DNA from: an uncultured bacterium
GTDB lineage: Bacteria; Omnitrophota; Omnitrophia; Omnitrophales; Abzuiibacteriaceae
Direction: 5' to 3'
NCBI GenBank assembly: GCA_964387845.1
Contig: CAYLXA010000006.1
Span: 1-64,000, forward strand
DNA length: 64,000 nucleotides
Shown one piece after another: positions 6,171-44,124 of the stretch. Each line of letters opens with the position of its first letter. Positions within the stretch are counted from its first letter, which is position 1. The position numbers were made by a program, and so were the translations under genes. The notes under the pieces are model-generated. The model worked only from the letters and a program-made list of their open reading frames with translations. It searched no databases and was not told the DNA's origin.

Positions 6171-6473
6171 ATGAAAAAAATTTTATTCTGCTTCACAGTT
6201 CTTTTAATCGGTTCAGTCGTTTCGTTCTCGCTTCACGCCGAAGAGCCCAAGCAGGCCAAAAAAAACAGGCAATCCATTACCGGGATTCTGACAGAAGTCA
6301 CAAAAACATCTCTCACGATTCGTACGCAGGACGGCAAAGAACTGAGCTACATGCGCGGCTTTAAACTCAAGATGCCCGAGAAAGTTGGAAAGGGAAGCCT
6401 TGTGACGATCCACATCAATCCGATCCTGGGCGTCGTCAAATCGATTGAGCCCGGGACGGGGAAGAAGCAGTGA
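6171..6473 (+). CDS. small secreted hypothetical protein
   Basis: Signal peptide 'VLLIGSVVSFSLHA'. Confidence 0.35.
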   Translation: MKKILFCFTVLLIGSVVSFSLHAEEPKQAKKNRQSITGILTEVTKTSLTIRTQDGKELSYMRGFKLKMPEKVGKGSLVTIHINPILGVVKSIEPGTGKKQ

Positions 6474-9898: not shown

Positions 9899-9905
9899 TT
9901 CCTTT

Positions 9906-11878: not shown

Positions 11879-13051
11879 ATGAATTCAAAACGCCAAATCT
11901 ATTATTTCGACTATAACGCGACAACACCGATGGCGGAAGAAGTGTTGGCCGAAATGATGCCGTTTTTTGGCCCCGCCTACGGAAATCCGTCCAGCACTTA
12001 CCGGTTGGGAAGCGAATCGTTGCGCGCCCTGACTCAAGCGAGGCGCCAAGTTGCTAAGCTGATCGGTGCGGATGAGCGTGAAATTATTTTCACGGGCGGC
12101 GGAACGGAAAGCAACAACATGGCGATCTGGAGCGCGCTCCAAGCCGATCCTTTCAAAAGAAAAATCGTGACCAGCGCGGTCGAACATTCTTCGGTCCGAA
12201 ACGTCCTTTCCGATTTGGAAAAAAGCGGTGTTGAGGTTGTTAAAATCCCGGTTTCGCCGGCGGGTGAATTGGATTTAGACAGACTGGAAAAAGAGCTGAC
12301 CGAAAATGTTGCGGTTGTTTCGATTATGTGGGCCAACAATGAAACAGGTGTTGTATTTCCGGTCGATAAAATCACCCAGATTGTGAAATCAAAGAATATT
12401 TTGCTCCACGTGGACGCGGTGCAGGCGATCGGGAAAATTAAAATCGATTTATCGAAAACCGCCGTTGATTATTTGTCGCTCGCAGCACACAAATTTTACG
12501 GGCCGAAAGGCATCGGCGCGCTTTTTGTCCGGAAAAATGCCCCGGTTCATCCTTTGATTTTGGGCGGCCATCAGGAGCGCGGCCTGCGCGGCGGAACGGA
12601 GAATGTGCCGGGTATCGTTGGTATGGGAAAAGCCGCAGAGCTTCTTTTGAAAACCAGCGAAGATTCAATCATTCAAATGGGAAGATGGCGCGAACAGCTG
12701 GAGAAAGCCCTGATTCGCGATATTCCGGAAATTATTGTGAACGGAAAGTTATCGGCGCGGGCTTGCAATACGCTAAACGTTACGATTCCGGGCGTTTTAT
12801 CCGAAGTTTTGATCCCAAAGCTGGATGAGGCCGGTATTTGTGTCTCAAGCGGTTCGGCGTGCCTGACGGGCGCTCAAGAACCTTCGGTGGTTTTGCAGGC
12901 GATGGGTGTTTCGAAAGAAGACGCGATGTGTTCCGTTCGTATCAGCTTGGGATCCAAAACAACGCAGGAAGAAGTGGATTATTTAATTCAGATGATGCCG
13001 AAAGCGGTCCGGGAAATTCGGCAAACCAAAATTGGAGCGAAAAAGCAATGA
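11879..13051 (+). CDS. cysteine desulfurase (NifS/IscS family, PLP-dependent)
   Basis: 'FTGGGTESNN', 'SLAAHKFYGPKGIGALFVR' (PLP Lys) and the catalytic 'SSGSACLTG' loop. Confidence 0.85.
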   Translation: MNSKRQIYYFDYNATTPMAEEVLAEMMPFFGPAYGNPSSTYRLGSESLRALTQARRQVAKLIGADEREIIFTGGGTESNNMAIWSALQADPFKRKIVTSAVEHSSVRNVLSDLEKSGVEVVKIPVSPAGELDLDRLEKELTENVAVVSIMWANNETGVVFPVDKITQIVKSKNILLHVDAVQAIGKIKIDLSKTAVDYLSLAAHKFYGPKGIGALFVRKNAPVHPLILGGHQERGLRGGTENVPGIVGMGKAAELLLKTSEDSIIQMGRWREQLEKALIRDIPEIIVNGKLSARACNTLNVTIPGVLSEVLIPKLDEAGICVSSGSACLTGAQEPSVVLQAMGVSKEDAMCSVRISLGSKTTQEEVDYLIQMMPKAVREIRQTKIGAKKQ

Positions 13052-14151
13052 TTCAGGAATCGGATGTTTTGAGCGCGCTGAAGCAGGTGCAAGATCCCGA
13101 CCTTAAGATTGATATCGTGACGCTCAAGTTCGTGAAGAACGTCACAATCAAAGGTGGCGATGTGAGTTTCGATATCGAGCTGACGACTCCGGCGTGCCCC
13201 GTGAAAGACCAATTAAAAGAAGAGGCAGGCCGGGTTGTCCGGAAAATCCAGGGCGTGGTGAATGTGAATGTGAATATGACTTCTAACGTAAAAGCGCGGG
13301 CGAGCGCGGGAAGCGCTGTGCTGCCGAAAGTAAAAAATGTGATTGCCGTTGCGAGCGGCAAGGGAGGTGTCGGAAAATCAACCGTGGCGGCTAATTTGGC
13401 GCTTGCACTTGCGAAAACCGGTGCAAAAACGGGTTTGCTGGATGCCGATGTGTACGGCCCGAGCATTCCGGTGATGTTTGGCGTAAACGATCAGCCGGAA
13501 GTGACCGGTGATCAGAAAATTATTCCGATTGAAAGTCAGGGCTTGAAACTCATGTCGATGGGTTTTATCTCGAATGATGATTCGCCCGTGATTTGGCGGG
13601 GCCCGATGGTGCACGGTATTTTGCAGCAATTCCTGACGCGCGTTGAATGGGGCGCTCTCGATTATTTGGTGATGGATTTGCCGCCCGGCACAGGCGATGC
13701 GCAGCTGACACTCACGCAATCGGCGCCGATTTCGGGCGCTGTGATTGTCACGACGCCGCAAGAAGTGAGTCTTGTGGATGCGCGCAAAGGCCTCAAAATG
13801 TTTCAGAAAGTGAATGTGCCGGTCCTTGGTATTGTCGAAAACATGAGTTATTTTGTCTGCCCCGATTGCAACAAACGTCACAACATTTTCCGCTCGGGCG
13901 GCGGCCGTAAAACTGCCGATGAATTGGGCGTTTTGCTCTTGGGTGAAGTGCCGATTGATCCGGAAGTTTCGGAATCGGGTGACGCCGGCGTGCCGATTGT
14001 GGCGCGTAACGAAAAATCACCGGCCGCGAAGGCGTATCAAAATATTGCCGGAGCCGTTGCCGCGCAGCTCAGCATCGTCAATATGAAAAACGCTAATGTC
14101 CAATCTGATTTTAAAATGACCTGGAAAACGGTGCCGCAAAACCCGTCATGA
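13048..14151 (+). CDS. Fe-S cluster carrier ATPase Mrp/ApbC/NBP35 family with an N-terminal DUF59 (MIP18-like) domain
   Basis: ATG at 13048 overlaps the NifS stop (ATGA). Deviant Walker A 'ASGKGGVGKST' and a CPDC (CxxC) motif. The upstream ORF extension to 12838 lies inside nifS and is rejected. Confidence 0.85.
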   Translation: MIQESDVLSALKQVQDPDLKIDIVTLKFVKNVTIKGGDVSFDIELTTPACPVKDQLKEEAGRVVRKIQGVVNVNVNMTSNVKARASAGSAVLPKVKNVIAVASGKGGVGKSTVAANLALALAKTGAKTGLLDADVYGPSIPVMFGVNDQPEVTGDQKIIPIESQGLKLMSMGFISNDDSPVIWRGPMVHGILQQFLTRVEWGALDYLVMDLPPGTGDAQLTLTQSAPISGAVIVTTPQEVSLVDARKGLKMFQKVNVPVLGIVENMSYFVCPDCNKRHNIFRSGGGRKTADELGVLLLGEVPIDPEVSESGDAGVPIVARNEKSPAAKAYQNIAGAVAAQLSIVNMKNANVQSDFKMTWKTVPQNPS

Positions 14152-14477: not shown

Positions 14478-15070
14478 GAAAAGAAAAAAACGGATTGGGC
14501 ATTGCTGATGATCCAAAAATCGAATCACTCATCAAGGATTTAATCGAAAAGCTCGGCGAGGATCCGTCGCGCGAAGGTTTGCTCGAAACCCCAAAGCGCG
14601 TCGAAGCGTCGCTTCGTTATTTAACGAGAGGCTACAAGCAGGATATCGAAAAAGTCCTCAACAACGCGATTTTTGAAGAAAATTACGACGAGATGGTCGT
14701 GTTAAAAGACATCGACCTTTTTAGTCTGTGCGAACATCATTTGCTTCCGTTTTACGGAAAAGCACATGTTGCGTATCTGCCCAACAAAAAAATCATCGGC
14801 CTATCCAAAATTCCGCGTGTGGTGGACGTATTTGCGCGCCGTTTACAGGTTCAGGAGCGCCTCACGGGACAAATCGCTGACTGTCTCATGCAATATTTGA
14901 AGCCGAAAGGTGTTGCGGTCGTGATTGAAGCGTTTCACTTGTGTATGGCGATGCGCGGTGTCGAAAAGAAAGATTCTTACTGCGTGACGAGCTCCATGCT
15001 CGGCGGATTCAGGTCCGATGAAAGGTCGCGTGCGGAATTCCTGAGTTTGATCGGAAAGCGGAACGGCTAG
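14474..15070 (+). CDS. folE: GTP cyclohydrolase I (FolE)
   Basis: '[20 protein letters not shown]' active-site motif. ATG at 14474 (ATGA overlap with the upstream stop) preferred over the in-frame ATG at 14444. Confidence 0.8.
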
Positions 15071-16125
15071 TTTTTCGTTCCGGAACGGAGCGATTCGATT
15101 TCGGCTTCGAGATTGGCAATTCTTTTCTTCAGGTCGCTGACATCCCCAAAACTTTCGGCAGCGCGAAGCTGTGCGGCGATTTGCCTGCGCATTTCCTGAT
15201 AAGGCCGCGCCGGCTGGCCAAACCAAATTTGCTTAGCCGGAATTTTTTTGCCGGAAGGAACGCCGGAATTTCCGCCGAGCATCGTACCGTCGCCGATTTC
15301 CACGTGATCCGCGAGCCCTGCGCCGCCGCCCATAGTTACAAAATTCCCGATTTTGCAGCTTCCGGAAATTCCGCATTTTGCTGAAATTGCGCAATGCTCG
15401 CCGATTTCCACATTGTGCGCGATTTGGACCTGATTATCGATTTTGGTTCCTTTGCCGATGACGGTTTCGCCGACCGTGGCGCGGTCTATCGTGGTTCCGG
15501 CGCCGATTTCGACATCGTCATGCACGACAACGATACCGACTTGCGGCACTTTTTGCTGCTGCTTGCCGTCAAATACAAACCCGAATCCATCTGCACCCAA
15601 AACGGCACCGGCATGAATCGTGACGCGGTTTCCAATTTTGGTTTGATCGTAAATTGTCACATTCGGGTGAATAACGGAATTTTCGCCGATCACGGCTGAC
15701 TCACCGATGTGAACATTGGCCCGGATGACCGAATTTTTTCCGATCTGTACTTTCTCGCCGATCACGGCGAATGCCTCTACTGTCACATTGTCTCCGATTT
15801 TGGCCGTCGGCGCGATGAAAGCTTGTTTTGAAATTTGTCCGTCGAATTTTTTTGGCGGATGAAACAGGGAAAGCAGCATGGCGAACGCGAGTTTGGGATT
15901 ATCGGTTTGAATCAGCGGCTTGGATGATTTCGTGATGTTTTTGGGGACGATGATGCAGGCGATTTCGCTTTTCTCAAGCGCCGGCAAGTCTTTCGGGTTC
16001 AGTAAAAACGTAATACCACCCCGAATCGGCTTTTCGAATCCGGAAACATCGCCGATTTCGATTTTGGAATCACCGATAACCGTTCCGTGAATGATTTCTG
16101 ATAACTTTTGAATCGTGTAAGGCAT
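15067..16125 (-). CDS. lpxD: UDP-3-O-(3-hydroxyacyl)glucosamine N-acyltransferase (LpxD) with a ~35-aa C-terminal coiled-coil-like extension
   Basis: Long left-handed beta-helix hexapeptide repeats and an LpxD-type N-terminus '[14 protein letters not shown]'. ATG at 16125 chosen by homology to canonical LpxD starts; a TTG at 16173 is also in frame. Confidence 0.8.
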
Positions 16126-16185
16126 GGCGAGCATTTTAACTGGTAGGAGTCGAAAGTCAAGAAGGTCTGCCAAAGCTAAACAACT

Positions 16186-23043: not shown

Positions 23044-25575
23044 ATGAATTTGAAGAAAGCCGGATTGCTTGTTTATTGCATTTTCTTTGCTTGCCTACCG
23101 CTTTCAATTTCTCTATCGGAAGCTTGTGTAGTATCCATCTTAATTCTTTTAGTGCTTGATCAAGCTTTTCAATTCCAAAAGGAAAAAACACAAACAGCCG
23201 GCTGCCCGGGAGAAAGCAGTTTGCTGCATAAAACACCGGTTGATTTATACGTTGTTTTGTTTTTATTCTTCTTCTCGCTATCCTTTCTTGTTACTTGGCT
23301 TCAAACCCCGGAAAATTTCGATCTTAGTTTTCGCGGCTTTTTGAAAGTATTGAAATGGTTCATTATTTTTTACGGTGTTGTCCGGTTTATTAATGATCCC
23401 CCTAAAATCAAACTCGTCAGCTATGTGATTTTATTGGTGGTTTCCGTTATTGTCTTGAACGGTATTGTTCAATTGATTTATGGCCGCGATTTATTGATGG
23501 GGTATTCGGCAACAGCGCCTTTTAAACTGCCCAGAGTCAGGTCTTCATTTTCAAGCGATAACGGATTTGCTACTTATTTAATGATGACGGTGCCTTTTGC
23601 GGTATTGAGCGGTTACATGTTCATGAAAACGGTAAAGAATGCCTGGGGCCGGCGGGCAATCCGTTTATTGATGTGGATATTTATCGCACTTGCTTTAATT
23701 TGTTTTTCGCAGACGCGGACGAGAGGCGCATGGATTGCCTCTATTTTTGGATTGCTTAGCTTGTTCTTCGTTTATCGGCCTAAGAAGAGCACTTCTTTTT
23801 TGATCGTGCTTACCATTTCGAGTATTTGCCTGATGCCTATTTTATTAAATGGAATCGTTAATAACCTCCATATTGATCATTCAACCGGTGTGATGAGATT
23901 TTATTTTGATGAGGATATTTTCACATACGCAAAAAAGGATTTTGGGCGTTTAAAATTGTGGATGGAAGCTCTTGCGATCGCGTCGGATCATTATTGGTTC
24001 GGCACAGGACCAAACACATATGCAAAGATTGCGGTTAATTTTAAATCCTTCGAATATGGCGGTATTTATCCGCATAATTCGTACTTAAAGCTGTTTGTTG
24101 AAATTGGCTTTTTGGCGTTCTTAGCTTTCGCAGCGCTTTTAGCCAGTATTTTGTACGTTGTGATCCGGTCCATTAAGCATTTTCGTAATCATCAAAGCGA
24201 CCTGGTTATTCTTCAGGCCGGTGTATTGATTGCCATTACTTCCTTTATGGCAAAATCATTTGTGGATACCGAAATAGAATCGCTAAAGAGAGTTTATCTG
24301 TTTTGGCTTTTTTCGGGATTGGGTTTCTCAATTTCCCGGCAGCTGTTGATGGACCGGTTTCGAATGCGGTTTTTAGCATCTAAAGATATCGTTTCGGTAT
24401 TGCATATCGGCAATCAGCAATCCATTCGCCGCTTAATCGGCATGAATATGGAGCATCAAGCAAAGTCCGGTTATCAGGTTATGGCGCTTACATCGTCAAA
24501 GGCGCCGTATTCTGAAGTCAGGGGGGTTCCGGTTAAGACAATTTTGTTTGAAGAGCAGTCGATCCGCCCAGTCCGGGATTTCTTTGAATTGATACGGCTT
24601 GTGAAAGCTATAGTTTCATTTTCGCCCGACATTGTTCATACGCATAGTGTTAAATTCGGGATTTTCGGCCGCCTGGCCGCACGGATAGCTTGCGTTTCTT
24701 ATGTGATTCATACGGCACACGGAATTTATAGGCCTCACGATGTTAATCCAACCAAACGGTTCCTGATTGACGGTTTGGAAAAAATCGCGGGGTATTTATG
24801 CGATGCAGTTTTGTTTGTGAGCCGTTTTGATTTATCGGCATACGTTAATCAAAAAATTGTCAGCCGGTCGAAAGCGTCATGGATTGGCAACGGGATTGAT
24901 CTCAACCGTTTTAACCCCGCAGCCTATGATCGTGACGAAATTGCGCAAAAGCGGAAAGAGATTGGCGTGCAAGACAATCAATTTTTAATCGGGCTCGTGG
25001 CGCGTCTTGTCAAGGACAAGGGTTGTGAGGAATTTTTTGAAGCTGCCCGCATCATTTCAGCACAGCATCCAAACGTGAAGTTTTTGGTGGTAACTTTGAG
25101 TTACTCGAGAAATGACAGTATTTCAGAAAAAATTGTTGAACAGCATGGATTAAGCGAGAAGGTGATTTTCCTACGCGACAGAGACGACATGCCGATCTTG
25201 TATCTGGCCATGGATTTGCTGGTGCATCCTTCGTGGCGCGAAGGTTTTCCGCGCTCTCTCATGGAAGCTTCCGCAATGGGCACGCCGTGTGTGGTAAGCG
25301 ATATCAGCGGCAATCAGAATGTCATAGAAAATGATGTTACGGGTTTGATGTTTGAAGTAAAAAATGCTCAAGAAATGTCGCAGAAAATCAATTGGGCAAT
25401 GGCTCATCCGCAGGCGATGAAATCTATGGCATTTAGAGCGCAGGAAAGGGCCAAGCAAGATTTTGATCAGCAGAAAATGTTCCAGCGAATTGATATCGCC
25501 TACGAGAAGAATCTTTCTGGCGCGGAATTTAATGAATCGTTGTGTCCGGAAGTTTATGAGTTGGCAAGCCGTTAA
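23044..25575 (+). CDS. fusion protein: N-terminal O-antigen ligase/Wzy_C-family polytopic membrane domain plus C-terminal GT4 glycosyltransferase
   Basis: N-terminal ~430 aa is multi-TM with the Wzy_C signature 'PHNSYLKLFVEIGFLAF'. The C-terminus carries the GT4 motif 'SWREGFPRSLMEASAMGTPCVVSDISGNQNVIENDVTGL'. Confidence 0.65.
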   Translation: MNLKKAGLLVYCIFFACLPLSISLSEACVVSILILLVLDQAFQFQKEKTQTAGCPGESSLLHKTPVDLYVVLFLFFFSLSFLVTWLQTPENFDLSFRGFLKVLKWFIIFYGVVRFINDPPKIKLVSYVILLVVSVIVLNGIVQLIYGRDLLMGYSATAPFKLPRVRSSFSSDNGFATYLMMTVPFAVLSGYMFMKTVKNAWGRRAIRLLMWIFIALALICFSQTRTRGAWIASIFGLLSLFFVYRPKKSTSFLIVLTISSICLMPILLNGIVNNLHIDHSTGVMRFYFDEDIFTYAKKDFGRLKLWMEALAIASDHYWFGTGPNTYAKIAVNFKSFEYGGIYPHNSYLKLFVEIGFLAFLAFAALLASILYVVIRSIKHFRNHQSDLVILQAGVLIAITSFMAKSFVDTEIESLKRVYLFWLFSGLGFSISRQLLMDRFRMRFLASKDIVSVLHIGNQQSIRRLIGMNMEHQAKSGYQVMALTSSKAPYSEVRGVPVKTILFEEQSIRPVRDFFELIRLVKAIVSFSPDIVHTHSVKFGIFGRLAARIACVSYVIHTAHGIYRPHDVNPTKRFLIDGLEKIAGYLCDAVLFVSRFDLSAYVNQKIVSRSKASWIGNGIDLNRFNPAAYDRDEIAQKRKEIGVQDNQFLIGLVARLVKDKGCEEFFEAARIISAQHPNVKFLVVTLSYSRNDSISEKIVEQHGLSEKVIFLRDRDDMPILYLAMDLLVHPSWREGFPRSLMEASAMGTPCVVSDISGNQNVIENDVTGLMFEVKNAQEMSQKINWAMAHPQAMKSMAFRAQERAKQDFDQQKMFQRIDIAYEKNLSGAEFNESLCPEVYELASR

Positions 25576-26173
25576 AACAATTTTTGATTTTACGTTGTCT
25601 CTTTTGGCTTTAGTCGTACTATCGCCGCTTTTGCTGATTGTGTCAGCGGCTATTAAATTTGACTCAGAAGGGCCTGTCTTGTTTGTTCAAGATAGGGTCG
25701 GCCTGAACGGAAAGATTTTTAAAATTTATAAATTTAGATCCATGCTCAATAACGCACAAGATGGTTTCGGCCCCTCTGGCCGCGTGTTGACCCAAGCTGA
25801 TAACCGTATTACTAAGCTCGGAAAGTTTTTAAGGGGTTCCAGTATTGATGAAATACCGCAGTTGTGGAATGTGGTCAGGGGAGAAATGGCATTAATTGGA
25901 CCGCGGCCCGTACTTCCGGTCCAAGCAGAGCAATTCTCGGATTTTCAAAGAGAGCGCCTTCGGGTGAAGCCCGGCTTAACGGGTCTTGTGGCTGTGCGCG
26001 GCGGTTATGAGCTTTCGTGGCCGCAGCGAATCCGTTTGGATGTTTGGTATGTACGGCATCAATCTTTTGCGCTGGATTGTTACATATTTTTTAAAACAAT
26101 CGAACTGTTGATTGCCGGCCGTTCGATTTATAATTCGCAGGGAGTAAGTGAAGATTTCAAGCCCGCGAAATAA
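25556..26173 (+). CDS. small monotopic initiating phosphoglycosyltransferase (bacterial sugar transferase family, PglC/WbaP-C-terminal-like)
   Basis: ATG at 25556 (the extension from 25463 lies within the upstream CDS). Has 'RIFDF' + TM + 'GPVLF.QDRVG..GK.F...KFRSM' and 'PGLTG' motifs. Confidence 0.75.
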   Translation: MSWQAVKTIFDFTLSLLALVVLSPLLLIVSAAIKFDSEGPVLFVQDRVGLNGKIFKIYKFRSMLNNAQDGFGPSGRVLTQADNRITKLGKFLRGSSIDEIPQLWNVVRGEMALIGPRPVLPVQAEQFSDFQRERLRVKPGLTGLVAVRGGYELSWPQRIRLDVWYVRHQSFALDCYIFFKTIELLIAGRSIYNSQGVSEDFKPAK

Positions 26174-27334: not shown

Positions 27335-28000
27335 ATGCTAAATAGCCAGAGCAATTTTGATTCTATCAATTTCCGCGATTTTCTTTCCTTAATTAAAAAG
27401 CGAAAGCATATTTTTATTGTAACGTTTGTTCTTTTATTCTCGTCCTTATATTGGTGGAAAACCGCATATTTTCCGACTTTTCGGCTTCAACAGGGAATTT
27501 TAATGCGGGACGGCTCCGGCCAAATCGTTGAACCTGATTATTTATTCAATTTGAGAAAGCATTTTTTTCAAAGCGATTGGATAGTAGCTAAAATTAATTC
27601 TAGAATTCCCGATTCAACCTTAGACCATAAAACTTTACAAAAACGGTTATTGACCAAGGTGATCCCTTTCGCCGGGCCGTCTCCCAAGCATCATCAATTG
27701 GAGCGTGGGTATATTCTAGCTCTTATTGTCGATTCGGATTCTGCCGACCTTGGAAAACTTGTTTTAAGCCACTGGATTGCTGTTCTTAAAGAAGAGTTAT
27801 TGAGAATTGATGATGAAGTCGGTTTAGATTTTAAGTTCAGTGTTGCAACCGAGCCTGTATTGATTAGAAGTCGATTTACAGAGAAGCTGGAAGCAACCGG
27901 TGTTTCGTTTGCATTAGCTTTTTTGCTTTCGATATTCACAGTCGTGAGTTTCGAAATTTTTGCCAAACATAGCGGACGATCTCAAAATTTGAATTCCTAG
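27335..28000 (+). CDS. short Wzz-like (polysaccharide co-polymerase N-terminal domain) membrane protein
   Basis: 'INFRDFLSLIKKRKHIFIVTFVLLF' resembles the Wzz N-terminal motif/TM; second TM at the C-terminus; lacks the long periplasmic coiled coil. Confidence 0.35.
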   Translation: MLNSQSNFDSINFRDFLSLIKKRKHIFIVTFVLLFSSLYWWKTAYFPTFRLQQGILMRDGSGQIVEPDYLFNLRKHFFQSDWIVAKINSRIPDSTLDHKTLQKRLLTKVIPFAGPSPKHHQLERGYILALIVDSDSADLGKLVLSHWIAVLKEELLRIDDEVGLDFKFSVATEPVLIRSRFTEKLEATGVSFALAFLLSIFTVVSFEIFAKHSGRSQNLNS

Positions 28001-28013
28001 CGCCCCTGCGGTT

Positions 28014-29429
28014 ATGGATATGATTTTTGGAATTATTATAATTATTTGTATTTATGCAGCGTGGATTTTCTTGACAGTAAAGTCATTCAATCACCCCCGC
28101 ATTTTATTTTTAACCTCAGTTATTCTTGTTTCATTTGTAAACTTTTCTTTTTCTGATAATGAACTTTTCAGTCGTTTTGCTATCCCCGACGTTCTTTTTG
28201 TAACGCTCTTTGGGATTTATTTATTACGCGTTGCTCTGCTCCAAAGAGAAGAAATAGTTTTGCCTAAGAGCGCCTGCTTTGTCTTATTAATTTTTATTAC
28301 CGCTATTTTCCTTTCTTTTCTAAGCGCAATTCCAGATTCTGATATGATTTTTGGCGGAGGAGAATTTCTGATCATTTTGCAAGGCATTCTTGTTTTTGTT
28401 ATGGGAGTTCATTATGTTAAAACTGAACAAGAATTTATATCGTTTCTTAAAATGTGGATGATTTCCGTGATTTTGACATCAATTGTCTGTTTTATCGATA
28501 TGGGTGATATGATTTTTGCTCCTCCCGTTATCGAGAAGCTTCCATTTGCACATAGCGGATTTTTCGGGATTTTTGACCTTCTGTCCAAACAGACTTTCAT
28601 TCATGATTTCTTGTCTCCGTGGCCTTCTAGAATTATGGGCCCGTTTCGTTCGAATGGCCAGTTGGGCAGTTATTCATTAACATCATTCTTTGTAATGCTG
28701 GCCTATCTGTATGCGCCGGGTCAAACAGCCAAAACAAAAAAAGTAATTATCTTCCTTGCTTGGTGTCTCGGAATTTTTACTTTTCTGTCTATGGCGCTGA
28801 GGTTTTTGCCTAGTTTTGCTTTAGGGCTTGGGTTGTACGCTGTTTTCACTTTCAGGAAGTCTAAAAGACAAGGTTTTATTTTGTTGTGCTTGATAGCCGC
28901 GGCCGTGCTGCTGATTGTATCGATCGCTGCTTTTAATCCGCAGCTAGTTCCAAAATGGGCTCGCGATCTTAACATCACCAACACGCAGGTGGGAACAATG
29001 GGGAGCAAGCCGCTTCGTGCATGGGCTTTGTCATCCGTGCAAGAAGCATTTCTAAATCATCCATTGTTTGGCGTTGGGTTTGGCCGTTTTATCCAATCAG
29101 ATTATATTAATTTGACGCGCGGCTTTGAAATTCATAGCACACCGCTTCAATTTCTTGCCGAAACTGGAGCGGTAGGATTTCTTGCGTACTTATTTATGAT
29201 GGCGTATTTTGGTTATCTTGCTTTTCGTAACATTGTCTTGTCTCGTTTGAATGAATGGAAGGATTTTTTTATGGTACTCGCGTTTGGAATTTTATCGCTT
29301 CCAATCAGTTACTTATATAACCGACATCTCAAAGAACGAACCTTTTGGTTTTTGTTAATCTTAATTTATGCCGGATATCGATTTTTAAATGAAAGGCGCC
29401 TGCTTCAAGGCAAAAAAATCCAGACGTGA
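28014..29429 (+). CDS. Wzy_C/O-antigen-ligase-family polytopic membrane protein (polymerase or ligase)
   Basis: ≥10 TM helices; 'EIHSTPLQFLAETGAVGFLAY' Wzy_C loop motif. Paralogue of the 42748..44124 CDS, sharing a C-terminal 'YLYNRHL(K/R)ERTFW' block. Confidence 0.5.
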   Translation: MDMIFGIIIIICIYAAWIFLTVKSFNHPRILFLTSVILVSFVNFSFSDNELFSRFAIPDVLFVTLFGIYLLRVALLQREEIVLPKSACFVLLIFITAIFLSFLSAIPDSDMIFGGGEFLIILQGILVFVMGVHYVKTEQEFISFLKMWMISVILTSIVCFIDMGDMIFAPPVIEKLPFAHSGFFGIFDLLSKQTFIHDFLSPWPSRIMGPFRSNGQLGSYSLTSFFVMLAYLYAPGQTAKTKKVIIFLAWCLGIFTFLSMALRFLPSFALGLGLYAVFTFRKSKRQGFILLCLIAAAVLLIVSIAAFNPQLVPKWARDLNITNTQVGTMGSKPLRAWALSSVQEAFLNHPLFGVGFGRFIQSDYINLTRGFEIHSTPLQFLAETGAVGFLAYLFMMAYFGYLAFRNIVLSRLNEWKDFFMVLAFGILSLPISYLYNRHLKERTFWFLLILIYAGYRFLNERRLLQGKKIQT

Positions 29430-30571
29430 AACTGTTTTCTCAAGCGTCAATGTTGGCTGATCGCTGTATCATGTTTGTGGCGGTGAAAGGATTTGCTCTT
29501 AGCAACTCAAGACTCCCTTTGATGAAGTTCTTTATTAAGCAGGGGTGGAGAGTAGTTGCGGCAACTTCCGAAGACGATCATATCAACCATTTAAAGAACG
29601 AAGGCGTCATTGTTGAACCGATTTCATTTCGAAGAGGCGGTTTTCATCCATTTTCAGATTTCCGTGCACTAATTCAATTAATCAAAGTTTATCATCGCTA
29701 TCGACCGGCTCTGATCCAGCATTTCAATGGTAAGCCGATTGTTTTAGGAAATTTTGCCGCGCTTTGTCTGAAAAAAGTACTGATTGTGAATACGGTCACA
29801 GGCCTTGGGCATGCGTTTCTGGAGATGAATTTTTCATTCCGGCTGTTTGCATGGATTTATCAATTATTTTGCAGCCGCGCGGCTGCAACTATTTTCCAGA
29901 ACGAAAGCGACTATGAAGTTTTTGTTAAAAACGGTTGGGTCAATTCAAAAAGAGCGCATGTGATTGTCAGTTCGGGAATTGATTTTGAAAGATTTATAGG
30001 TGATCCTAAAAAAAGAACCGAAACGCCCACTATTTTACTGGCAGCTCGGCTTGTCTGGATGAAAGGCATCTCTGAATTTGTGGATGCTGCCCGGGAAATT
30101 AAATCCCGATTTCCGGCTGCACGCTTTTTTTTAGCTGGCGCGCCGGATTTAATTCATCCCGATTCGATTCCCATGGACTGGGTGCGTGAACGGACCCGGG
30201 AAGGCGTGATTGAGTATTTGGGCTATGTTGAACATCCCGAGAAACTATTGCAAACCGTTTGGGTTTGCGTATTGCCGTCTTACCGGGAAGGTGTTTCAAG
30301 AATTTTACTTGAAGCAGCGGCTTGCGAAGTGCCGATCGTGGCAACCGATGTCCCGGGCTGCAGGGAAACCGTCCAAGATGGAAAAACGGGAATATTGGTA
30401 CCTCCGCGCGATCGGCAGGCTTTGGTGCAAGCAATTACAAAATTACTGCAAAACCCCAAAGAAGCTCAGAAAATGGGCGAGCAAGGAAGGCGATTTGTTC
30501 GTGACAAATTTGATGTTCACCAGATCATGCAAAAATATATTCAAATTTATCAATTGATCGGTTTGAACTGA
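29426..30571 (+). CDS. GT4-family glycosyltransferase
   Basis: 'SYREGVSRILLEAAACEVPIVATDVPGCRETVQDGKTGILV' (E-x7-E motif). Start could be a downstream ATG (29450). Confidence 0.75.
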   Translation: MKLFSQASMLADRCIMFVAVKGFALSNSRLPLMKFFIKQGWRVVAATSEDDHINHLKNEGVIVEPISFRRGGFHPFSDFRALIQLIKVYHRYRPALIQHFNGKPIVLGNFAALCLKKVLIVNTVTGLGHAFLEMNFSFRLFAWIYQLFCSRAAATIFQNESDYEVFVKNGWVNSKRAHVIVSSGIDFERFIGDPKKRTETPTILLAARLVWMKGISEFVDAAREIKSRFPAARFFLAGAPDLIHPDSIPMDWVRERTREGVIEYLGYVEHPEKLLQTVWVCVLPSYREGVSRILLEAAACEVPIVATDVPGCRETVQDGKTGILVPPRDRQALVQAITKLLQNPKEAQKMGEQGRRFVRDKFDVHQIMQKYIQIYQLIGLN

Positions 30572-31434
30572 TGTCCGTACTTGATAAGCCCGTTTTTATT
30601 GTCGGAGCACCCAGATGCGGCAAAAAAATGACAGCAGAAGTTCTTGCCAGGGACTCGTCTGTGTATGCTTTTCAGTATGAAATGAATTTTTTGTGGCGTT
30701 ATGGTCACGCAGCGTTTCCGCACGATCGGCTGACTCCCCAAATGTTGTCCAATGATATCAAGACCTACATCCAAGATCAATTTACAGGGGTGCTAGGCAA
30801 GCATGGTAAACTGCGCATTGTGGACCGGACAGATCATAATGTGGTTCGCCTTGATTATGTCAACGCTGTTTTCCCGGACAGTTTTTTCATTTTTGTCGTG
30901 CGGGACCCGCGAGCTGCAGTTGCTTCCGCTATCCGGCGCCGGCAAGAGAAAGTTGGCTTCGTTCCTTATCTCAAGAAGTCGTTAACGGTTCCGACGCGGG
31001 ATTTGATATATTATGGCTTTCGGTATTTGAGTGACATTGCGCAAGCGCGGCTCAGAAAAAACGGCTATAAGAATTTGTGGGGCATTCGAACGCCGCAAAC
31101 TCTATCTTTAAGTCCCGAAAGCTCATTGGCCGAGAAATGCGCAGTACAGTGGAAGGAATGTGTACTGGCAGGCCTGCAATTTTCAAAAACATTTCCGCCG
31201 GAACGGTTTCTGATCGCTCGGTATGAGAAGTTAACCAGAGATCCGGTTGGTGAATTTAAGCGGATATTTGATTTTGCCGCTCTGTCTTGGAATTCTGAAA
31301 TTGCAAAGTGGGTGACCGAGAATGTTCATACTAATAGTATGGATAAATGGAAACAGCAGTTAAGCGATGACGATTTGCTGCAAGTACAATTACACACAAA
31401 AGATCTGGCGCAACGATTAAGTTACTCATTTTAA
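30571..31434 (+). CDS. sulfotransferase-family protein (Sulfotransfer_3-like)
   Basis: P-loop-like 5'-PSB 'GAPRCGKKMT' near the N-terminus and a 3'-PB-like 'VVRDPRAAVAS'. Confidence 0.55.
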   Translation: MSVLDKPVFIVGAPRCGKKMTAEVLARDSSVYAFQYEMNFLWRYGHAAFPHDRLTPQMLSNDIKTYIQDQFTGVLGKHGKLRIVDRTDHNVVRLDYVNAVFPDSFFIFVVRDPRAAVASAIRRRQEKVGFVPYLKKSLTVPTRDLIYYGFRYLSDIAQARLRKNGYKNLWGIRTPQTLSLSPESSLAEKCAVQWKECVLAGLQFSKTFPPERFLIARYEKLTRDPVGEFKRIFDFAALSWNSEIAKWVTENVHTNSMDKWKQQLSDDDLLQVQLHTKDLAQRLSYSF

Positions 31435-31444: not shown

Positions 31445-32110
31445 ATGAATAAAGATTGGACCCACGAATTTCATGCAAGGTTTCATCCAAAAGGATTGAG
31501 TCTTGGTGAGCGGTTTTTTAAGAGAGCATTTGACATTACGGTGGCAATACTTGGTTTATGTTTAACGTGGTGGGTTATTGTGATTGCATTTATTTTGGCT
31601 TGGCTTGATACCAGGCAATCGGGTTTTTTTGTTCAAAATCGCGTGGGATATCGTGGAAAATTATTCAAACTTCTAAAAATAAGGTCAATGCGGGATAATC
31701 CTGCCATTAAAACAACCGTAACAACCGCTAATGATCCACGTATTACAAAGTTAGGCAAGTTCTTCAGAAAGACCAAAATTGACGAACTGCCGCAACTTTT
31801 TAATGTTCTGTGGGGAGATATGACCTTGGTGGGCCCGAGGCCTGATGTTATGGGGTTTGCAGATCGTTTAGAAGGAGATGATCGAATCATTCTCTCCATT
31901 CGTCCCGGGATTATTGGTCCGGGCACGCTCAAATATTTGTATGAAGAAGAAGAGTTGGCCCGACAGTCGAATCCGGAACAGTATAATCGCGAAGTTATTT
32001 TTCCGGATAAAGTCAGGCTGAATCGCGCATATATTGAAAACTATTCTTTCTGGAACGATCTCAAATATATTTATAAAACCTTGCAACGCATTAAATACCA
32101 TCAACAATAA
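31445..32110 (+). CDS. second small initiating phosphoglycosyltransferase (bacterial sugar transferase family)
   Basis: 'RAFDI' + TM + 'GFFVQNRVGYRGKLFKLLKIRSM', 'ELPQLFNVLWGDMTLVGPRP' motifs; paralogous to the 25556..26173 CDS. Confidence 0.75.
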   Translation: MNKDWTHEFHARFHPKGLSLGERFFKRAFDITVAILGLCLTWWVIVIAFILAWLDTRQSGFFVQNRVGYRGKLFKLLKIRSMRDNPAIKTTVTTANDPRITKLGKFFRKTKIDELPQLFNVLWGDMTLVGPRPDVMGFADRLEGDDRIILSIRPGIIGPGTLKYLYEEEELARQSNPEQYNREVIFPDKVRLNRAYIENYSFWNDLKYIYKTLQRIKYHQQ

Positions 32111-32128: not shown

Positions 32129-33106
32129 ATGGGTATTTCAGGTTTAAAGAAGGTTGATATTATTGCGACAGTGGGCCCAAGGTCGTTGTCTAAGCAAGTT
32201 ATTTGTGACATGATTGATGCGGGCGCCTCTATCTTGCGGATCAACGGATCGCATGAGAATTTGGAAAGCATTCGAGTTTGTGCTAGCCAGCTACGCAAAT
32301 GGATGGGCAAGCGCGCTAAAATCTTAGTAGATATTCCGGGCAATAAGATCAGGACCATGCATTTGGGCGACCCTATTATTTTGAAACCCGGAAAAGAAAT
32401 TCAGCTTTTCAAGCATCAGGTTAATTTCCCCGGTTTTTTTAAATTGCTCAGAAAGGGTGACACCATTCTGGCGAATGACGGCTTGGTCAGGTTCAAGGTG
32501 CAAAAACCATCCGGCGAGGCAATTGTATTTAAATCAGAAACGGAAGGAAAGCTTGAGAATAATAAAGGATTCCACGTATCACGAAAACTTTCCTTACCGT
32601 TTTTGTTTGAAAAGGATATCCAGATTTTTAAATTAGCCAAACAAATTGGAATCGATTTTGTCGGTCTTTCATTTGTACGCTCGGCGGACGATGTTCGAGA
32701 GGCAAGGCAATATTTCAAGAATAGTAAAACCAAGCTTTTGGTCAAGGTCGAAACCCGGGGTGCGGTTGACCGGCTTGAAGAAATATTGGCGGAATCCGAT
32801 CAAATTTTGATTGACCGGGGCGATCTTGCGGCTGAAATTGGTTTTGAAAATGTTTCATGTGTTCAAACTAAAGTAATCAGCGCTGCCAAGAAGAGAAAAG
32901 TCCGCGTTGCATTGGCAACGCAGTTTCTGCACAGTATGGTTGATCGCGATGTTCCTTTGATTGCTGAGGTGGATTCGCTTTATTACGCAATCCGATCAGG
33001 GATTGATGCCGTTCAAGTATCGGAAGAAACTTCGATTGGCCGGTTTCCCGAAAAAGTAATTCGAGTTTTAACTACCATGATTCAGCAAAGCAAGAGAAAA
33101 GTTTAG
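32129..33106 (+). CDS. pyruvate-kinase-like barrel-domain protein lacking the C-terminal regulatory domain
   Basis: 'KIIATVGPRS', 'RINGSHE' (cf. NFSHG), 'ILVDIPGNKIRT', 'VKVETRGAV', 'IDRGDLAAEIG' all align to PK catalytic motifs. Only 325 aa against ~470 for canonical PK. Confidence 0.55.
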   Translation: MGISGLKKVDIIATVGPRSLSKQVICDMIDAGASILRINGSHENLESIRVCASQLRKWMGKRAKILVDIPGNKIRTMHLGDPIILKPGKEIQLFKHQVNFPGFFKLLRKGDTILANDGLVRFKVQKPSGEAIVFKSETEGKLENNKGFHVSRKLSLPFLFEKDIQIFKLAKQIGIDFVGLSFVRSADDVREARQYFKNSKTKLLVKVETRGAVDRLEEILAESDQILIDRGDLAAEIGFENVSCVQTKVISAAKKRKVRVALATQFLHSMVDRDVPLIAEVDSLYYAIRSGIDAVQVSEETSIGRFPEKVIRVLTTMIQQSKRKV

Positions 33107-41392: not shown

Positions 41393-42718
41393 TTACGACC
41401 TTTTGATCGGCCATTTTTTCTTCCAGTAAGCCAAGACCTCTTTCTCCATAGACAGGGAAAATAGATATGGCCACTCAATATATTCCTTGGAATTAATAAA
41501 ATAGAGTTGAAAGGTCGTGATTACCATTGTGCTGAGAATGTTTGCGCAAGCAGCGCCGTGGGCTTGAAATTTCGGAATGAGAAATAAATTCAGAACAAGT
41601 GATACAGCGAGTCCTAAAAAATTTGAGATAGCCATTAGCCCGCTTTTCTTTTCCAGCAAAAGGATGATGTTGCAGGTTTGGCTCGGAATGCCGACCAATG
41701 AAGAAATTCCCACAAGAGCGAATAAACCCACTTGGGAACTATAGTCCTTTGGCACTAACTGCGGAATGAGCTGGATTGCCCCCACAATACCCATAATCAC
41801 AATTGCTTGAAAAATAATGCGTGTTTTAACAATAGACATCAGTAATCGATTGCGCTTCTTGATTGCTTGTTGGTCGTGGGCTTCAAAGATATATGGAACA
41901 ATCGTAATTTGATTAAATCTTTCGGAAGCATCAAAGAGCGTGCTAAAAAAATGGTAAGGTGCTAATACGCTTAATGAGGTAATGGCCCCCAGAAGGTATC
42001 GATCGTAGTATTGCCACACCTTTTTTCCCACATCTCCAAAACAAATCGGAAATCCATAGCGGAGACCGCTTTTTATGAATTGTAAATTGGGAACGGAGAA
42101 GGGTTGGATTTTGTACTTACTTAAAAACCAGATAAAAATTGCTAGAAAACTAAAACTCCAGGTCCAGGTAACCGTGTAAATAGTAACCGGCCCAATCAAA
42201 AGAGCTGCGATCATAAAAACCAACCAGAACGCGACTTGCAATATAGTGATATTGTTAAATTCCTTTATCTGTTTTGAATAATTGAAGTAAATCTGGAGCA
42301 GAGGAAAAAGACCGGATAAAAATAGAAGAAAAGACAAATTAAAAAAGAGCTGACCGGACAAGTTGAAATCAATCATGGCGGATATTGTGTCAATTGGTAT
42401 GAAAATCAAGATGAGTACCAGGAGGCAAAGCATTGAAGCTAATTGAAGAAAATTTGAGTATTGAAAATACAGGACCCGGCTTTCCTGGTTCAAAGCCGGA
42501 ATTTCTCTGCGTAAATAATCGCCCCATCCCAAATCCGAAACCGCCATCCACATTCCCATAGTAGCAACAAAAAGGCTGTAGAAGCCGTATTCAGTACTTG
42601 TCAGCTGCCGGACAAGAAAAATGGCCAAGCAGCCTTTTAAGCCGATTGTAATTACTCGAGACACGGTCGAGTGGATGTACTGGCCGATAATGGTGGTTTT
42701 AATTGAGCTCATGAGCAA
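41393..42718 (-). CDS. Wzx-like polysaccharide flippase (MOP/MATE superfamily)
   Basis: ~12 TM helices, 441 aa, N-terminal pattern typical of PST-family flippases. Confidence 0.5.
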   Translation of the reverse strand: MLMSSIKTTIIGQYIHSTVSRVITIGLKGCLAIFLVRQLTSTEYGFYSLFVATMGMWMAVSDLGWGDYLRREIPALNQESRVLYFQYSNFLQLASMLCLLVLILIFIPIDTISAMIDFNLSGQLFFNLSFLLFLSGLFPLLQIYFNYSKQIKEFNNITILQVAFWLVFMIAALLIGPVTIYTVTWTWSFSFLAIFIWFLSKYKIQPFSVPNLQFIKSGLRYGFPICFGDVGKKVWQYYDRYLLGAITSLSVLAPYHFFSTLFDASERFNQITIVPYIFEAHDQQAIKKRNRLLMSIVKTRIIFQAIVIMGIVGAIQLIPQLVPKDYSSQVGLFALVGISSLVGIPSQTCNIILLLEKKSGLMAISNFLGLAVSLVLNLFLIPKFQAHGAACANILSTMVITTFQLYFINSKEYIEWPYLFSLSMEKEVLAYWKKKWPIKRS

Positions 42719-42747: not shown

Positions 42748-44124
42748 TTAGGAAGAAATCTGGCGCTCTCTATTAAATGTCTTCAGGCGGGAAGCCAAAT
42801 AAATAACTGCGATGAACAGCCAAAAAGTCCGTTCCCTTAAATGACGATTGTACAGATAGCTGGGAATTAGGCAGATGAATCCAAACAAAATAACGGCGTG
42901 AAATTCTTCCCATGCTGTTCGACGCGAGAACCAGAAATTCTGGAATGCCAGGAATAGAAAATATCCCATGAATATCAAATAGGCCAATGTCCCGACGATT
43001 CCGGTTTCGGCAAGAAATTGCAAGAGAGTACTGTGCATTTCATATCCACGAATGGATACTTGATAATCGGATTGGATAAAGCGGCCGTACCCAATTCCAA
43101 GAGTTGGATGATTTTCAAAGCTGTGTTTGGCGGCATCGATTTGGTTTCCTATAAAACCCTTTCCGGAGGCGAGGGATGACATTTTCTTGACGTTGCGCAA
43201 AATCGAGTTTTGAAAAATCTGAGGATTTAAATAGCTCATGAGTGAAAAAACAAGAGCGCACACAATTGCAATGGAAGCAAAAAGCGCAGACGCTTTCGGA
43301 GATTTCTTGCACAGATACACGGTAATAACGAGAATCCCGGTCGCCAGACTGGGGAAAACGCTGAAGCGTGCGGTAAAAAATGCGCAGAGTATCAGCAGCG
43401 GGGCAATGATCCAGATTCTTAGGCGACTCTTAATGCTTTGACCGGGCGCGAAAGAGAAGGCAAATAGCGCGAAGAAAGTGGTGGTAGCAAATGCGGAAAG
43501 CTGGCCGGGGGTTCGGAATGGCCCCTGGATACGAAAACTGTGCGGAGACAAAAAGGAATTTGCAAATACGCCCGGATGAATGATGTCACCGATAGAGAAA
43601 AAGCCGGTTCCTTTTCCGATTTTCGGTGCTTGGTTAGATAAGTCACTCATATCGATCAAAGAAACCGTGATTGCAATGATGGCGGCAACAGTCCAAGCGC
43701 GCATGATCTTGAAAAAATCATCCTCTGACTGTGTGTGTTCGGCGATTAACAGGAAAAATAACATGCCGACTACAATGGCAAATGGTTGGCCTTCGCCATA
43801 GATCACTGCTTTAATGGTTGATTCGCTCAGAAGAGATAAAGAGATGGCTGATAGAAGGATCAGAAAAATCAATGACGGATAAAGCGGAAAAGAAAATGAA
43901 TCACGCAAAATGACTTTTCGAATTACAAAAACCAATAATAAGGTAAAGAGCAGAATATCGGGCAGGGCAATGCGGCCTAGAATTTCCCCTTTAAAAAAAG
44001 AAAGATTGATTAGGCAGATGGTTGAAATCCATAGATAAAGCAGCCAATTTGGATTTGAAATGCCTTTTGCGAAAACCCAAAGCCATGCCGCGCAGAGTAT
44101 CGCCAGGATAGCAAGGGTTAGCAT
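42748..44124 (-). CDS. Wzy_C/O-antigen-ligase-family polytopic membrane protein, paralogue of the 28014..29429 CDS
   Basis: 'EMHSTLLQFLAETGIVGTLAY' and the C-terminal 'YLYNRHLRERTFW' block shared with the other copy. Confidence 0.5.
   Translation of the reverse strand: MLTLAILAILCAAWLWVFAKGISNPNWLLYLWISTICLINLSFFKGEILGRIALPDILLFTLLLVFVIRKVILRDSFSFPLYPSLIFLILLSAISLSLLSESTIKAVIYGEGQPFAIVVGMLFFLLIAEHTQSEDDFFKIMRAWTVAAIIAITVSLIDMSDLSNQAPKIGKGTGFFSIGDIIHPGVFANSFLSPHSFRIQGPFRTPGQLSAFATTTFFALFAFSFAPGQSIKSRLRIWIIAPLLILCAFFTARFSVFPSLATGILVITVYLCKKSPKASALFASIAIVCALVFSLMSYLNPQIFQNSILRNVKKMSSLASGKGFIGNQIDAAKHSFENHPTLGIGYGRFIQSDYQVSIRGYEMHSTLLQFLAETGIVGTLAYLIFMGYFLFLAFQNFWFSRRTAWEEFHAVILFGFICLIPSYLYNRHLRERTFWLFIAVIYLASRLKTFNRERQISS

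Follow-up and report, generated by a model that had tools for sequence, protein, structure and literature searches.

Why should one surface-sugar island carry two pairs of polymerase-like and partner genes in opposite orientation, and what could each pair contribute to the glycan? The question arises from the 64,000-nucleotide stretch of DNA analysed here (the window), in which a first-pass annotation had described a short Wzz-like gene followed by a Wzy_C gene on the plus strand and a mirrored pair, its Wzz-like member longer and with a coiled coil, on the minus strand. An ORF check with translations recovered all four reading frames, exact in position and strand. The two pairs, referred to below as modules A (A1, A2) and B (B1, B2), and the island genes that bear on their interpretation are as follows.

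23044..25575, plus strand: fusion of Wzy_C and GT4 glycosyltransferase domains, 843 aa (Pfam Wzy_C, 68.8 bits, and Glycos_transf_1)
25463..26173, plus strand: first small initiating phosphoglycosyl transferase (Bac_transf), upstream of module A (Pfam, E 3e-63)
27335..28000, plus strand: A1, short co-polymerase-like partner, 221 aa; TM helices at both ends of an alpha/beta base domain, coiled-coil hairpin absent
28014..29429, plus strand: A2, A-type paralog of the Wzy_C family, a 471-aa membrane glycosyltransferase
29426..30571, plus strand: GT4 glycosyltransferase directly downstream of A2 (Pfam)
31445..32110, plus strand: second small initiating phosphoglycosyl transferase (Bac_transf; Pfam, E 3e-51)
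41393..42718, minus strand: Wzx-type flippase directly downstream of B2 (Pfam Polysacc_synt, E 6e-18)
42748..44124, minus strand: B2, B-type paralog of the Wzy_C family, a 458-aa membrane glycosyltransferase (Pfam Wzy_C; E 1e-81 against A2)
44128..45357, minus strand: B1, long co-polymerase-like partner, 409 aa; two terminal TM segments, an A1-type base domain and a coiled-coil-like insert of ~190 residues

Within each module the two genes are closely spaced, with 13 nt between the A1 stop codon and the A2 start and 3 nt between the B1 stop codon and the B2 start, and translation is probably coupled in both A1/A2 and B1/B2; the start codons of A2 and B1 are uncertain, and gene callers shorten the two proteins to 452 and 401 aa, respectively. 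A promoter scan returned 15 sites against 15.1 expected in shuffled sequence, i.e. no excess, so operon boundaries were read from gene orientation alone. No tRNA genes were found in the window.

The two Wzy_C proteins are paralogs. Pairwise alignment of A2 with B2 runs end to end, with 164 of 468 positions identical (35%) and an E-value of 1e-81, and because this identity spans the full length, the relationship does not reduce to a shared C-terminal motif. Both motifs quoted as common to the pair, one in the loop and one in the C-terminal block, occur in A2 (EIHSTPLQFLAETGAVG and SYLYNRHLKERTFWFLL) as well as in B2 (EMHSTLLQFLAETGIVG and SYLYNRHLRERTFWLFI). As members of Pfam Wzy_C (PF04932), A2 at 37.0 bits and B2 at 33.8 bits lie barely above the gathering score of 31.7, and both have a multi-TM fold of the WaaL/SEDS-like type, in which a large periplasmic loop precedes the last helices. 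Across the 17 aligned sequences, A2 and B2 included, 26 residues are invariant (17/17). R212, H374, E383 and the block Y435-R437-H438-E441-R442-W445 are among these, and all are predicted to lie in periplasmic loops or at periplasmic helix ends, the placement of the C-terminal block being deduced from predicted topology; they probably form the binding site for the lipid-diphosphate substrate. The block itself, YxYNRHxxERTFW, is family-specific, invariant and C-terminal to the Pfam domain, a distinctive block in a diverged Wzy_C branch. RX10G motifs in two periplasmic loops are, we assume, a feature of the P. aeruginosa Wzy and not a universal one; A2 has the invariant R212 and a conserved GxGxGRF loop, and by inspection the exact R-x10-G spacing is absent (T223 stands at +11 from R212, and G370 at +12 from R358). 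An NCBIfam scan matched no family at E <= 0.01 for A2, for B2 or for either of the other two focal proteins, and a suggested connection to the exosortase-associated ligase-like family TIGR03097 accordingly found no footing.

Since BLASTP gives no match between A1 and B1, homology of the partner proteins was established through profiles and a bridging sequence. The A1 and B1 groups align by hhalign (96.5%, E 8e-10; A1 residues 8–157, B1 residues 10–160), and the 325-aa partner from the related locus L004 links to both (E 1e-6 to A1, E 2e-11 to B1). Pfam Wzz (PF02706; gathering threshold 25.5 bits) is not reached by either protein, A1 having no match and B1 scoring 17.9 bits (E 0.004) over residues 13–46; throughout the partner family sub-threshold matches occur in 5 of 20 members, and none lies above. 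Both proteins nevertheless have the alpha/beta base-domain fold of polysaccharide co-polymerases (PCP) between two TM segments, located near residues 26 and 192 in A1 (modeled as helices 24–45 and 180–220) and near residues 18 and 381 in B1. They differ in what follows the base domain: in B1, alignments reveal an insert of ~190 residues ahead of TM2, with weak matches to coiled-coil proteins only, and in the A1 model there is one 26-residue helix and no hairpin. A Pro/Gly-rich motif near TM2 has been described as conserved in Wzz proteins (PMC12004945); the 20-sequence alignment of the partner family contains no conserved Pro or Gly column before TM2, and A1 and B1 have one Pro each ahead of this segment. 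The family is small, a full HMMER scan of 1.84 billion proteins yielding 18 representatives and a word-indexed search with the partner alignment returning only the four proteins already known. The co-polymerase fold provides it with a structural annotation where Pfam and NCBIfam offer no model.

Partner and Wzy_C gene co-evolve. In 9/9 modules from metagenomes (A and B of the window, L001, L008, L004, L010, L020, L022 and L023) the partner gene immediately precedes the Wzy_C gene, and the pairing is invariant among all relatives that possess the partner. Distances among partners co-vary with those among their Wzy_C proteins (mirror-tree r = 0.965, Mantel p ~4e-4), and the A clade is identical in the two trees. 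Partner size follows the same division: short partners (206–222 aa) accompany A-type Wzy_C proteins, and partners of 325–409 aa accompany B2 and its relatives in L004, L022 and L023; the partner in L010, which is not resolved in the tree, has ~248 aa. A-type and B-type Wzy_C proteins form separate clades, each including sequences from other organisms, with a bootstrap of 100 for the A clade. In a synteny comparison, a related 439-kb metagenome contig (Ga0268299_1000056) carries both modules in the same convergent layout, at ~73% identity for Wzy_C and ~55% for the partner; the B2 ortholog (P0015, 73%) and P0002 sit on one related contig, and the B1 ortholog (P0021) is 56% identical. This layout recurs in independent JGI, Logan and NCBI assemblies. 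At the DNA level, only short chance-level matches and no repeat were found between modules A and B, and the duplication must therefore be ancient. Of the first-pass proposal of an ancient duplication or inversion, the duplication thus holds, and applies to the whole two-gene unit, given the co-varying distances, the retention of both modules on the related contig, the separate clades and the missing DNA repeat; an inversion is unneeded and has left no mark. A scan of GTDB representative genomes gave an Omnitrophota MAG as the nearest carrier, with no more than 36% identity.

Apart from its paired modules and the partner family, this is a glycan locus of the usual Wzx/Wzy type, though an elaborate one, in an uncultured bacterium. 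It offers the gene context of a Wzy-class enzyme, with Wzx, the Bac_transf genes at 25463 and 31445 and the co-polymerase-like A1 and B1 all encoded within it. The Wzx at 41393..42718 is the sole flippase detected, a TM survey of the island giving no second candidate; the order B1-B2-wzx is retained in L008, and in L004 the Wzx gene adjoins the module. Downstream of A2, the GT4 gene likewise has orthologs after the A-type Wzy_C gene of L001 (65%) and L019 (47%), and orthologs of the initiating transferases are found in L001 (the first, called there at 205 aa; the second, 80%) and in L004/L006 (the second, 66%). Several GT4 enzymes, two sulfotransferases, NeuB, a CMP-transferase and a 2-epimerase are also encoded. 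The probable product is a sulfated glycan that is rich in amino sugars and contains a nonulosonic acid. Among the window genes scanned, Pfam identified neither a Wza/OPX outer-membrane exporter nor a tyrosine kinase domain, and a single ATPase of the ParA/MinD type was seen, the Mrp/NUBPL Fe-S protein at 12838..14151; from the presence of the lipid A gene lpxD (15067..16173), the host appears to be diderm. A related island, that of L004-L006, has just one module, although it contains orthologs of genes that flank each of the two in the window. The earlier count of three Wzy_C members is correct at the level of Pfam, but the third, the Wzy_C+GT4 fusion, belongs to a different branch without BLASTP similarity to A2 or B2 (E 0.5 and 0.07); it has a 67% ortholog in L001 and a weak single-sequence phmmer match to WaaL (7tpg).

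We propose, with a probability of roughly 0.6, that the two ancient paralogous modules A and B, each composed of a bitopic co-polymerase-like protein and a Wzy_C-family membrane glycosyltransferase, operate as cognate pairs in a Wzx/Wzy-type island. At the periplasmic face, A2 and B2 would join undecaprenyl-diphosphate-linked repeat units that the small phosphoglycosyl transferases of the island would start and its single Wzx would flip, and A1 and B1 would surround or dock onto their own Wzy_C protein, as Wzz does on Wzy, and set processivity or chain length. The modules would differ mainly in the periplasmic reach of the partner (A1 hairpin-less, B1 with ~190 extra coiled-coil-like residues), so that the outcome would be either a single glycan with two kinds of linkage or two classes of chain length, or a pair of related glycans. 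The sequence and fold of A2 and B2 do not separate a polymerase from a WaaL-type ligase or a PglL-type O-oligosaccharyltransferase; it is the conserved co-polymerase-like partners that favor two polymerase modules. Several observations count against this proposal: one Wzx would have to serve two putative polymerases, with no Wza/OPX or tyrosine kinase found; the partners stay below the Pfam Wzz threshold and are without the Pro/Gly motif, A1 also being without a coiled coil; the L004-L006 island does with one module, which makes the need for two hard to explain; and the alignments behind the structure models are shallow (17 and 20 sequences).

A further point against polymerases, that the best solved-structure matches of A2 and B2 are a ligase and an oligosaccharyltransferase, leads to a different and rather doubtful assignment, in which A2, B2 or both are terminal transferases (WaaL-like to lipid A-core, or PglL-like to periplasmic proteins) and the upstream bitopic protein is an accessory or specificity subunit. 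By sequence profile the closest structure is a chain annotated 'oligosaccharyltransferase' (9rmk_A, E 2e-8), followed by WaaL (E 4e-4); both proteins carry H-S-x9-G-x-x-G, compatible with what we take to be the ligase motif, H[NSQ]x9Gxx[GTY]; the genome is apparently diderm, with lipid A genes; and at the start of the island lie genes of the bacillosamine type, for a PglF-like dehydratase, a DegT aminotransferase and a PglC-like transferase. The WaaL match, however, would be expected of any Wzy_C protein and is uninformative, because Wzy polymerase structures are apparently few or lacking in the PDB copy searched. Ligases and O-oligosaccharyltransferases are not known to depend on a co-polymerase-like partner, whereas that of A2 and B2 is invariant and co-evolving. 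No NCBIfam ligase model matches A2 or B2, and the separate Wzy_C+GT4 fusion, with its higher Pfam score and its WaaL match, is the more natural ligase candidate.

It is highly improbable that only one module is functional and that the other, as a redundant or decaying copy, has no role of its own. Although the sole Wzx and the related island that manages with a single module would be consistent with this, both ORFs are intact in both modules, A2 and B2 each retain all 26 family-invariant residues, and intact orthologs of both exist at ~73% in the related genome; A-type and B-type orthologs in further organisms, moreover, indicate long-term purifying selection on both. The chance that the likeness is superficial (short motifs in unrelated membrane proteins) or an assembly artefact (a recent inversion or duplication) is negligible. 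Nothing was found in its favor, although A1 and B1 do look unrelated by BLASTP, and it is ruled out by the full-length A2/B2 alignment, by the hhalign and bridging links between the partners, by the missing DNA similarity between the copies, and by the related contig together with the recurrence of the layout in independent assemblies.

Viewed as polymerase modules, A and B can be set beside several known systems. Wzz and Wzy form a complex of ~8:1 (PMC10030265), and like Wzy/Wzz pairs (PCP-1; O-antigen and enterobacterial common antigen, e.g. WzyE/WzzE; PMC10030265, PMC12004945), each module combines a multi-TM Wzy_C enzyme with a bitopic two-TM partner that has a periplasmic alpha/beta base. 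Enterobacterial wzz is found just beyond the border of the O-antigen cluster or at a distance from wzy (PMC12004945, PMC3715488), whereas here the partner gene directly precedes that of the polymerase in every case and one island has two cognate pairs. Clustering with Wzx and initiating transferases, and the long coiled-coil-like periplasmic insert of B1, are further likenesses to the Wzy/Wzz type; the sub-threshold Pfam scores and unconserved TM2 motif of both partners, and the absence of a helical hairpin from A1, are departures from Wzz. PCP-3 KpsE is the partner of an ABC transporter, and in contrast to KpsE systems the island has Wzx and no KpsMT. In its size class (~220 aa, two TM helices, a short external domain), A1 presumably resembles PCP-2b CpsC/CapA. 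The PCP-2b co-polymerases (CpsC/Wzd and CapA, of Gram-positive capsule loci) act together with a tyrosine kinase that has a gene of its own (PMC7310880), unlike the present case, where none was detected in the window and the host is apparently diderm. With WaaL (PDB 7tpg/7tpj) and PglL-type enzymes, A2 and B2 share the Wzy_C domain, the overall fold and a conserved periplasmic His-containing loop; they are set apart from these by an identity of 12–14%, the lack of an NCBIfam ligase match, a dedicated partner and the YxYNRHxxERTFW block. More than one set of Wzy (PF04932) and co-polymerase per organism is also seen in the EPS, MASC and BPS pathways of Myxococcus xanthus, which lie in separate clusters, each with a Wzx, a Wzc (PF02706) and a Wza to itself (PMC7310880). 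Unlike that arrangement, the present one places two clearly paralogous pairs in one island, with apparently one Wzx and no Wza seen.

In carrying a two-gene unit twice, as old and diverged copies, this surface-sugar island represents a rare form of a pathway that is itself well known, and the co-polymerase-like protein of one copy, A1, is unusually reduced. Current models of chain length are centered on the long periplasmic helical barrel or coiled-coil region of the co-polymerase. How Wzz-type co-polymerases set chain length is still debated (PMC12004945), and here two paralogous cognate pairs stand side by side; a long coiled-coil-like stretch is present in one partner and missing from the other, and relatives have intermediate lengths. 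If A and B are true polymerase modules, partner swaps within the family could separate polymerase activation or docking from chain measuring. A bolder version, which we regard as unlikely, is that the partners constitute an undescribed and very rare co-polymerase class in which the helical region is absent (A1 type, 206–248 aa), intermediate (312–358 aa) or long (B1 type, ~400 aa), each form locked to its own co-evolving Wzy_C protein, and that a hairpin-less and a long-hairpin module, acting on the units of one Wzx, would give a single glycan under two regimes of chain length or linkage, or a block co-polymer. The island would then be a natural experiment on whether activating the polymerase, a function separate from controlling length, requires the co-polymerase barrel at all. 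The G+C content of A1 (0.380), A2 (0.386) and B1 (0.386) is low, and low G+C is reportedly typical of wzy genes (PMC12004945).

The first-pass annotation had read two mirrored Wzz-like/Wzy_C-like gene pairs as an ancient duplication or inversion, and its coordinates for the four ORFs match exactly:

27335..28000, + strand: A1, short co-polymerase-like partner (221 aa)
28014..29429, + strand: A2, Wzy_C protein (471 aa)
42748..44124, − strand: B2, Wzy_C protein (458 aa)
44128..45357, − strand: B1, long co-polymerase-like partner (409 aa)

The intergenic gap is 13 nt in the A module (A1-A2) and 3 nt in the B module (B1-B2); gene callers place A2 and B1 in shorter frames of 452 and 401 aa, respectively. 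The motifs originally noted in the Wzy_C proteins are found in both A2 and B2 and, because the pairwise alignment spans their whole length (164/468 identical, 35%, E 1e-81), homology is global rather than restricted to the C-terminal motif. Both proteins score narrowly above the Pfam Wzy_C gathering score of 31.7 bits (A2, 37.0; B2, 33.8), and an NCBIfam scan returned no model matching either. Aligning 17 family members revealed 26 invariant columns, including R212, the G353/G355/G357 loop, H374, E383-T384-G385 and a C-terminal block (Y435, R437, H438, E441, R442, T443, F444, W445) that lies outside the Pfam domain match (residues 249–393) and is characteristic of the A2/B2 family. In a topology deduced from predicted helices and the positive-inside rule, nearly all invariant residues occupy periplasmic loops or periplasmic helix ends—the exception is P235, in a predicted cytoplasmic loop—and we infer that the periplasmic residues form a single putative active site.

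Compared directly by BLASTP, A1 and B1 show no significant similarity (E 2.2); A1 has no Pfam or NCBIfam match, and the sole Pfam match of B1 is a sub-threshold one to Wzz (residues 13–46). A bridging 325-aa protein (L004 9027..10004), whose gene immediately precedes a related Wzy_C gene in a groundwater metagenome, matches both by tblastn (A1, E 1e-6; B1, E 2e-11), and hhalign of an A1-type alignment against B1 and its ortholog pairs A1 residues 8–157 with B1 residues 10–160 (96.5% probability, E 8e-10). A1 and B1 are homologous and have a fold like that of co-polymerases: each carries a single hydrophobic segment close to each terminus, and their alignments have in common a TM helix at the N- and at the C-terminal end and, between the two, a base domain of ~110–130 residues in which three positions are near-invariant (A1 numbering: K108, V132, W147). 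Between base domain and TM2, multiple alignments place ~190 extra residues in B1, ~100 in intermediate relatives and none in A1. The label “Wzz-like” thus holds for fold and topology but not for Pfam Wzz membership, as only 5 of 20 partner-family members match, all sub-threshold, and the Pro/Gly-rich motif near TM2 described as conserved in Wzz proteins (PMC12004945) is absent from the family's multiple alignment. Unlike Wzz, this family has no existing sequence model and spans hairpin-less to long forms.

Both families are very rare. A word-indexed search of 5.8 billion proteins recovered 13 relatives of A2 and 8 of B2, and a full HMMER scan with a partner profile yielded 18 proteins at E ≤ 0.001 among 1.84 billion representatives. 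Of the GTDB representative genomes that carry the module, the nearest, an Omnitrophota MAG, reaches just 36% identity. When family HMMs were run over all ORFs of the fetched metagenome loci, a partner gene was found immediately upstream in every close Wzy_C relative having upstream sequence. This gives nine modules, the window's A and B plus those in L001, L008, L004, L010, L020, L022 and L023; across them, pairwise distances of partners and Wzy_C proteins were closely correlated (r = 0.965, Mantel p ~4e-4), and the same A clade appears in both trees. In the neighbour-joining tree of Wzy_C proteins, A2 groups with its ortholog P0002, P0003 and P0004 (bootstrap 100) and B2 with its ortholog P0015 and P0016 (bootstrap 84.5), the remaining sequences falling on the B side with no firm placement. 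Partner length follows suit: 206–222 aa beside A-type enzymes, 325–409 aa beside B2 and its relatives in L004, L022 and L023, and ~248 aa in L010, whose tree position is ambiguous. For more distant relatives from Thermoanaerobaculia MAGs (L011–L018), similarity to the Wzy_C proteins lies mainly in the C-terminal half, and no co-polymerase-like partner was found beside them; they retain the invariant RHxxERTFW block and, where examined, the upstream gene product is ~370–410 aa with no evident TM segments. L023 has a second Wzy_C gene (261..1637, − strand; family HMM E 6e-14), an orphan 3.4 kb away from the paired module of that locus, and islands with several Wzy_C genes may be common in this lineage.

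Both modules recur in the same convergent layout on the 439-kb JGI contig Ga0268299_1000056 and in Logan assemblies from the same organism or one like it, with identities to the window of 73% (A2), 73% (B2), 54% (A1) and 56% (B1), and no DNA repeat common to the A and B modules was found. It follows that the two-gene unit was duplicated as a whole and long ago, which bears out that half of the original proposal; nothing suggests a recent inversion.

Building on the observed paralogy, folds, adjacency, co-evolution and pathway context, we favour, with a probability of about 0.6, two cognate co-polymerase/polymerase modules. Each Wzy_C protein would form a complex with its own partner and polymerise Und-PP-linked units on the periplasmic side, by analogy with the ~8:1 WzzE:WzyE complex (PMC10030265); given how strongly the partners differ in periplasmic reach, each module would have its own linkage or chain-length regime. 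In the main rival reading, A2, B2 or both would be terminal transferases of the WaaL or PglL kind. Fold and sequence do not separate the two activities, since the solved reference structures come from a ligase and from an oligosaccharyltransferase; the invariant partner speaks against this reading, which we regard as rather improbable. Decay of one module after duplication is unlikely, as every invariant residue is kept in both copies and both have orthologs in other genomes. Multiple Wzx/Wzy pathways per genome are known (three in M. xanthus, PMC7310880), the diverse Salmonella wzy genes offer precedent for several Wzy genes (PMC3715488), and Wzy-Wzz pairing is the textbook arrangement (PMC12004945); the proposed polymerase modules differ from such systems in forming a strictly adjacent, co-evolving partner/enzyme cassette, duplicated inside one island with one Wzx.

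The island extends from ~17 kb to at least 58 kb of the window and includes:

23044..25575, + strand: fusion of Wzy_C (68.8 bits) and a complete GT4 (843 aa)
29426..31434, + strand: GT4 and sulfotransferase, separate genes downstream of A2
32129..33106, + strand: pyruvate-kinase barrel only (PF00224, E 3e-59)

Upstream of the A module lie a GDP-mannose dehydratase, a GT2, an asparagine synthase homolog, a PglF-like 4,6-dehydratase, the fusion, a small initiating transferase (Bac_transf) and a DegT aminotransferase. A1-A2 are followed by the GT4, the sulfotransferase, a second Bac_transf, the pyruvate-kinase-barrel protein, a second sulfotransferase, a DUF3473 deacetylase, GNAT and FemAB-like acyltransferases and a TM-GDSL protein. 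On the opposite strand are a GT4 and then the B1-B2-wzx operon, beyond which come DltD-like, PhyH, NeuB, CMP-transferase, 2-epimerase, capsule-synthesis-like, methyltransferase and AlgX-like SGNH proteins. The locus is of Wzx/Wzy type; its glycan is heavily decorated, probably with sulfate groups and a nonulosonic acid. A single flippase was detected in the island, and neither a Wza/OPX exporter nor a tyrosine kinase was seen among the scanned window genes.

The fusion has an ortholog in the related contig (67%, L001 5019..7565). Its Wzy_C domain shows no BLASTP similarity to A2 or B2 and the protein has a weak single-sequence match to WaaL. It may act as the ligase of the island, a role for which we consider it the best candidate. 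In a groundwater relative, the L004–L006 island has a single module. Neighbours of the A module and of the B module in the window both have orthologs in it: the 29426 GT4 and the 30571 sulfotransferase, as one fused gene, the 31445 transferase, the pyruvate-kinase-like protein, Wzx, the 39152 GT4, and the DltD-like and PhyH proteins. The second module has therefore been added to a core that the two islands have in common. The dehydratase, fusion, first initiating transferase and aminotransferase that accompany A1-A2 were not seen in this short stretch of the relative, and the block could be a second priming line.

The fused GT4-sulfotransferase is a 678-aa protein (L006 10100..12136; 47% and 53% identity to the window parts), and the pyruvate-kinase-barrel protein is kept in two other lineages (79% in L001, 47% in L006). 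The longest ORF of the first Bac_transf (25463..26173, + strand) has a TTG start, and its first 113 nt coincide with the 3′ end of the fusion gene; the L001 ortholog is called as 205 aa, so the start is probably ~90 nt downstream. A methyltransferase gene (57298..58290, + strand) has the lowest G+C of the 38 island genes measured between 16 and 58 kb (0.348, against 0.38–0.49 for the others) and may be a recent acquisition. At the far island edge (58450..61896, + strand) are a radical-SAM/SPASM protein, an NAD-dependent epimerase and a spore-photoproduct-lyase-like radical-SAM protein; a radical-SAM/SPASM gene also adjoins the module at L022 7496..8500. Unrelated to the module duplication, a menaquinone (futalosine-type) gene run at 6470..10601 (+ strand) encodes a UbiA prenyltransferase, a flavoprotein, VitK2_biosynth, a radical-SAM CofH/MqnC-like protein and a UbiE methyltransferase.
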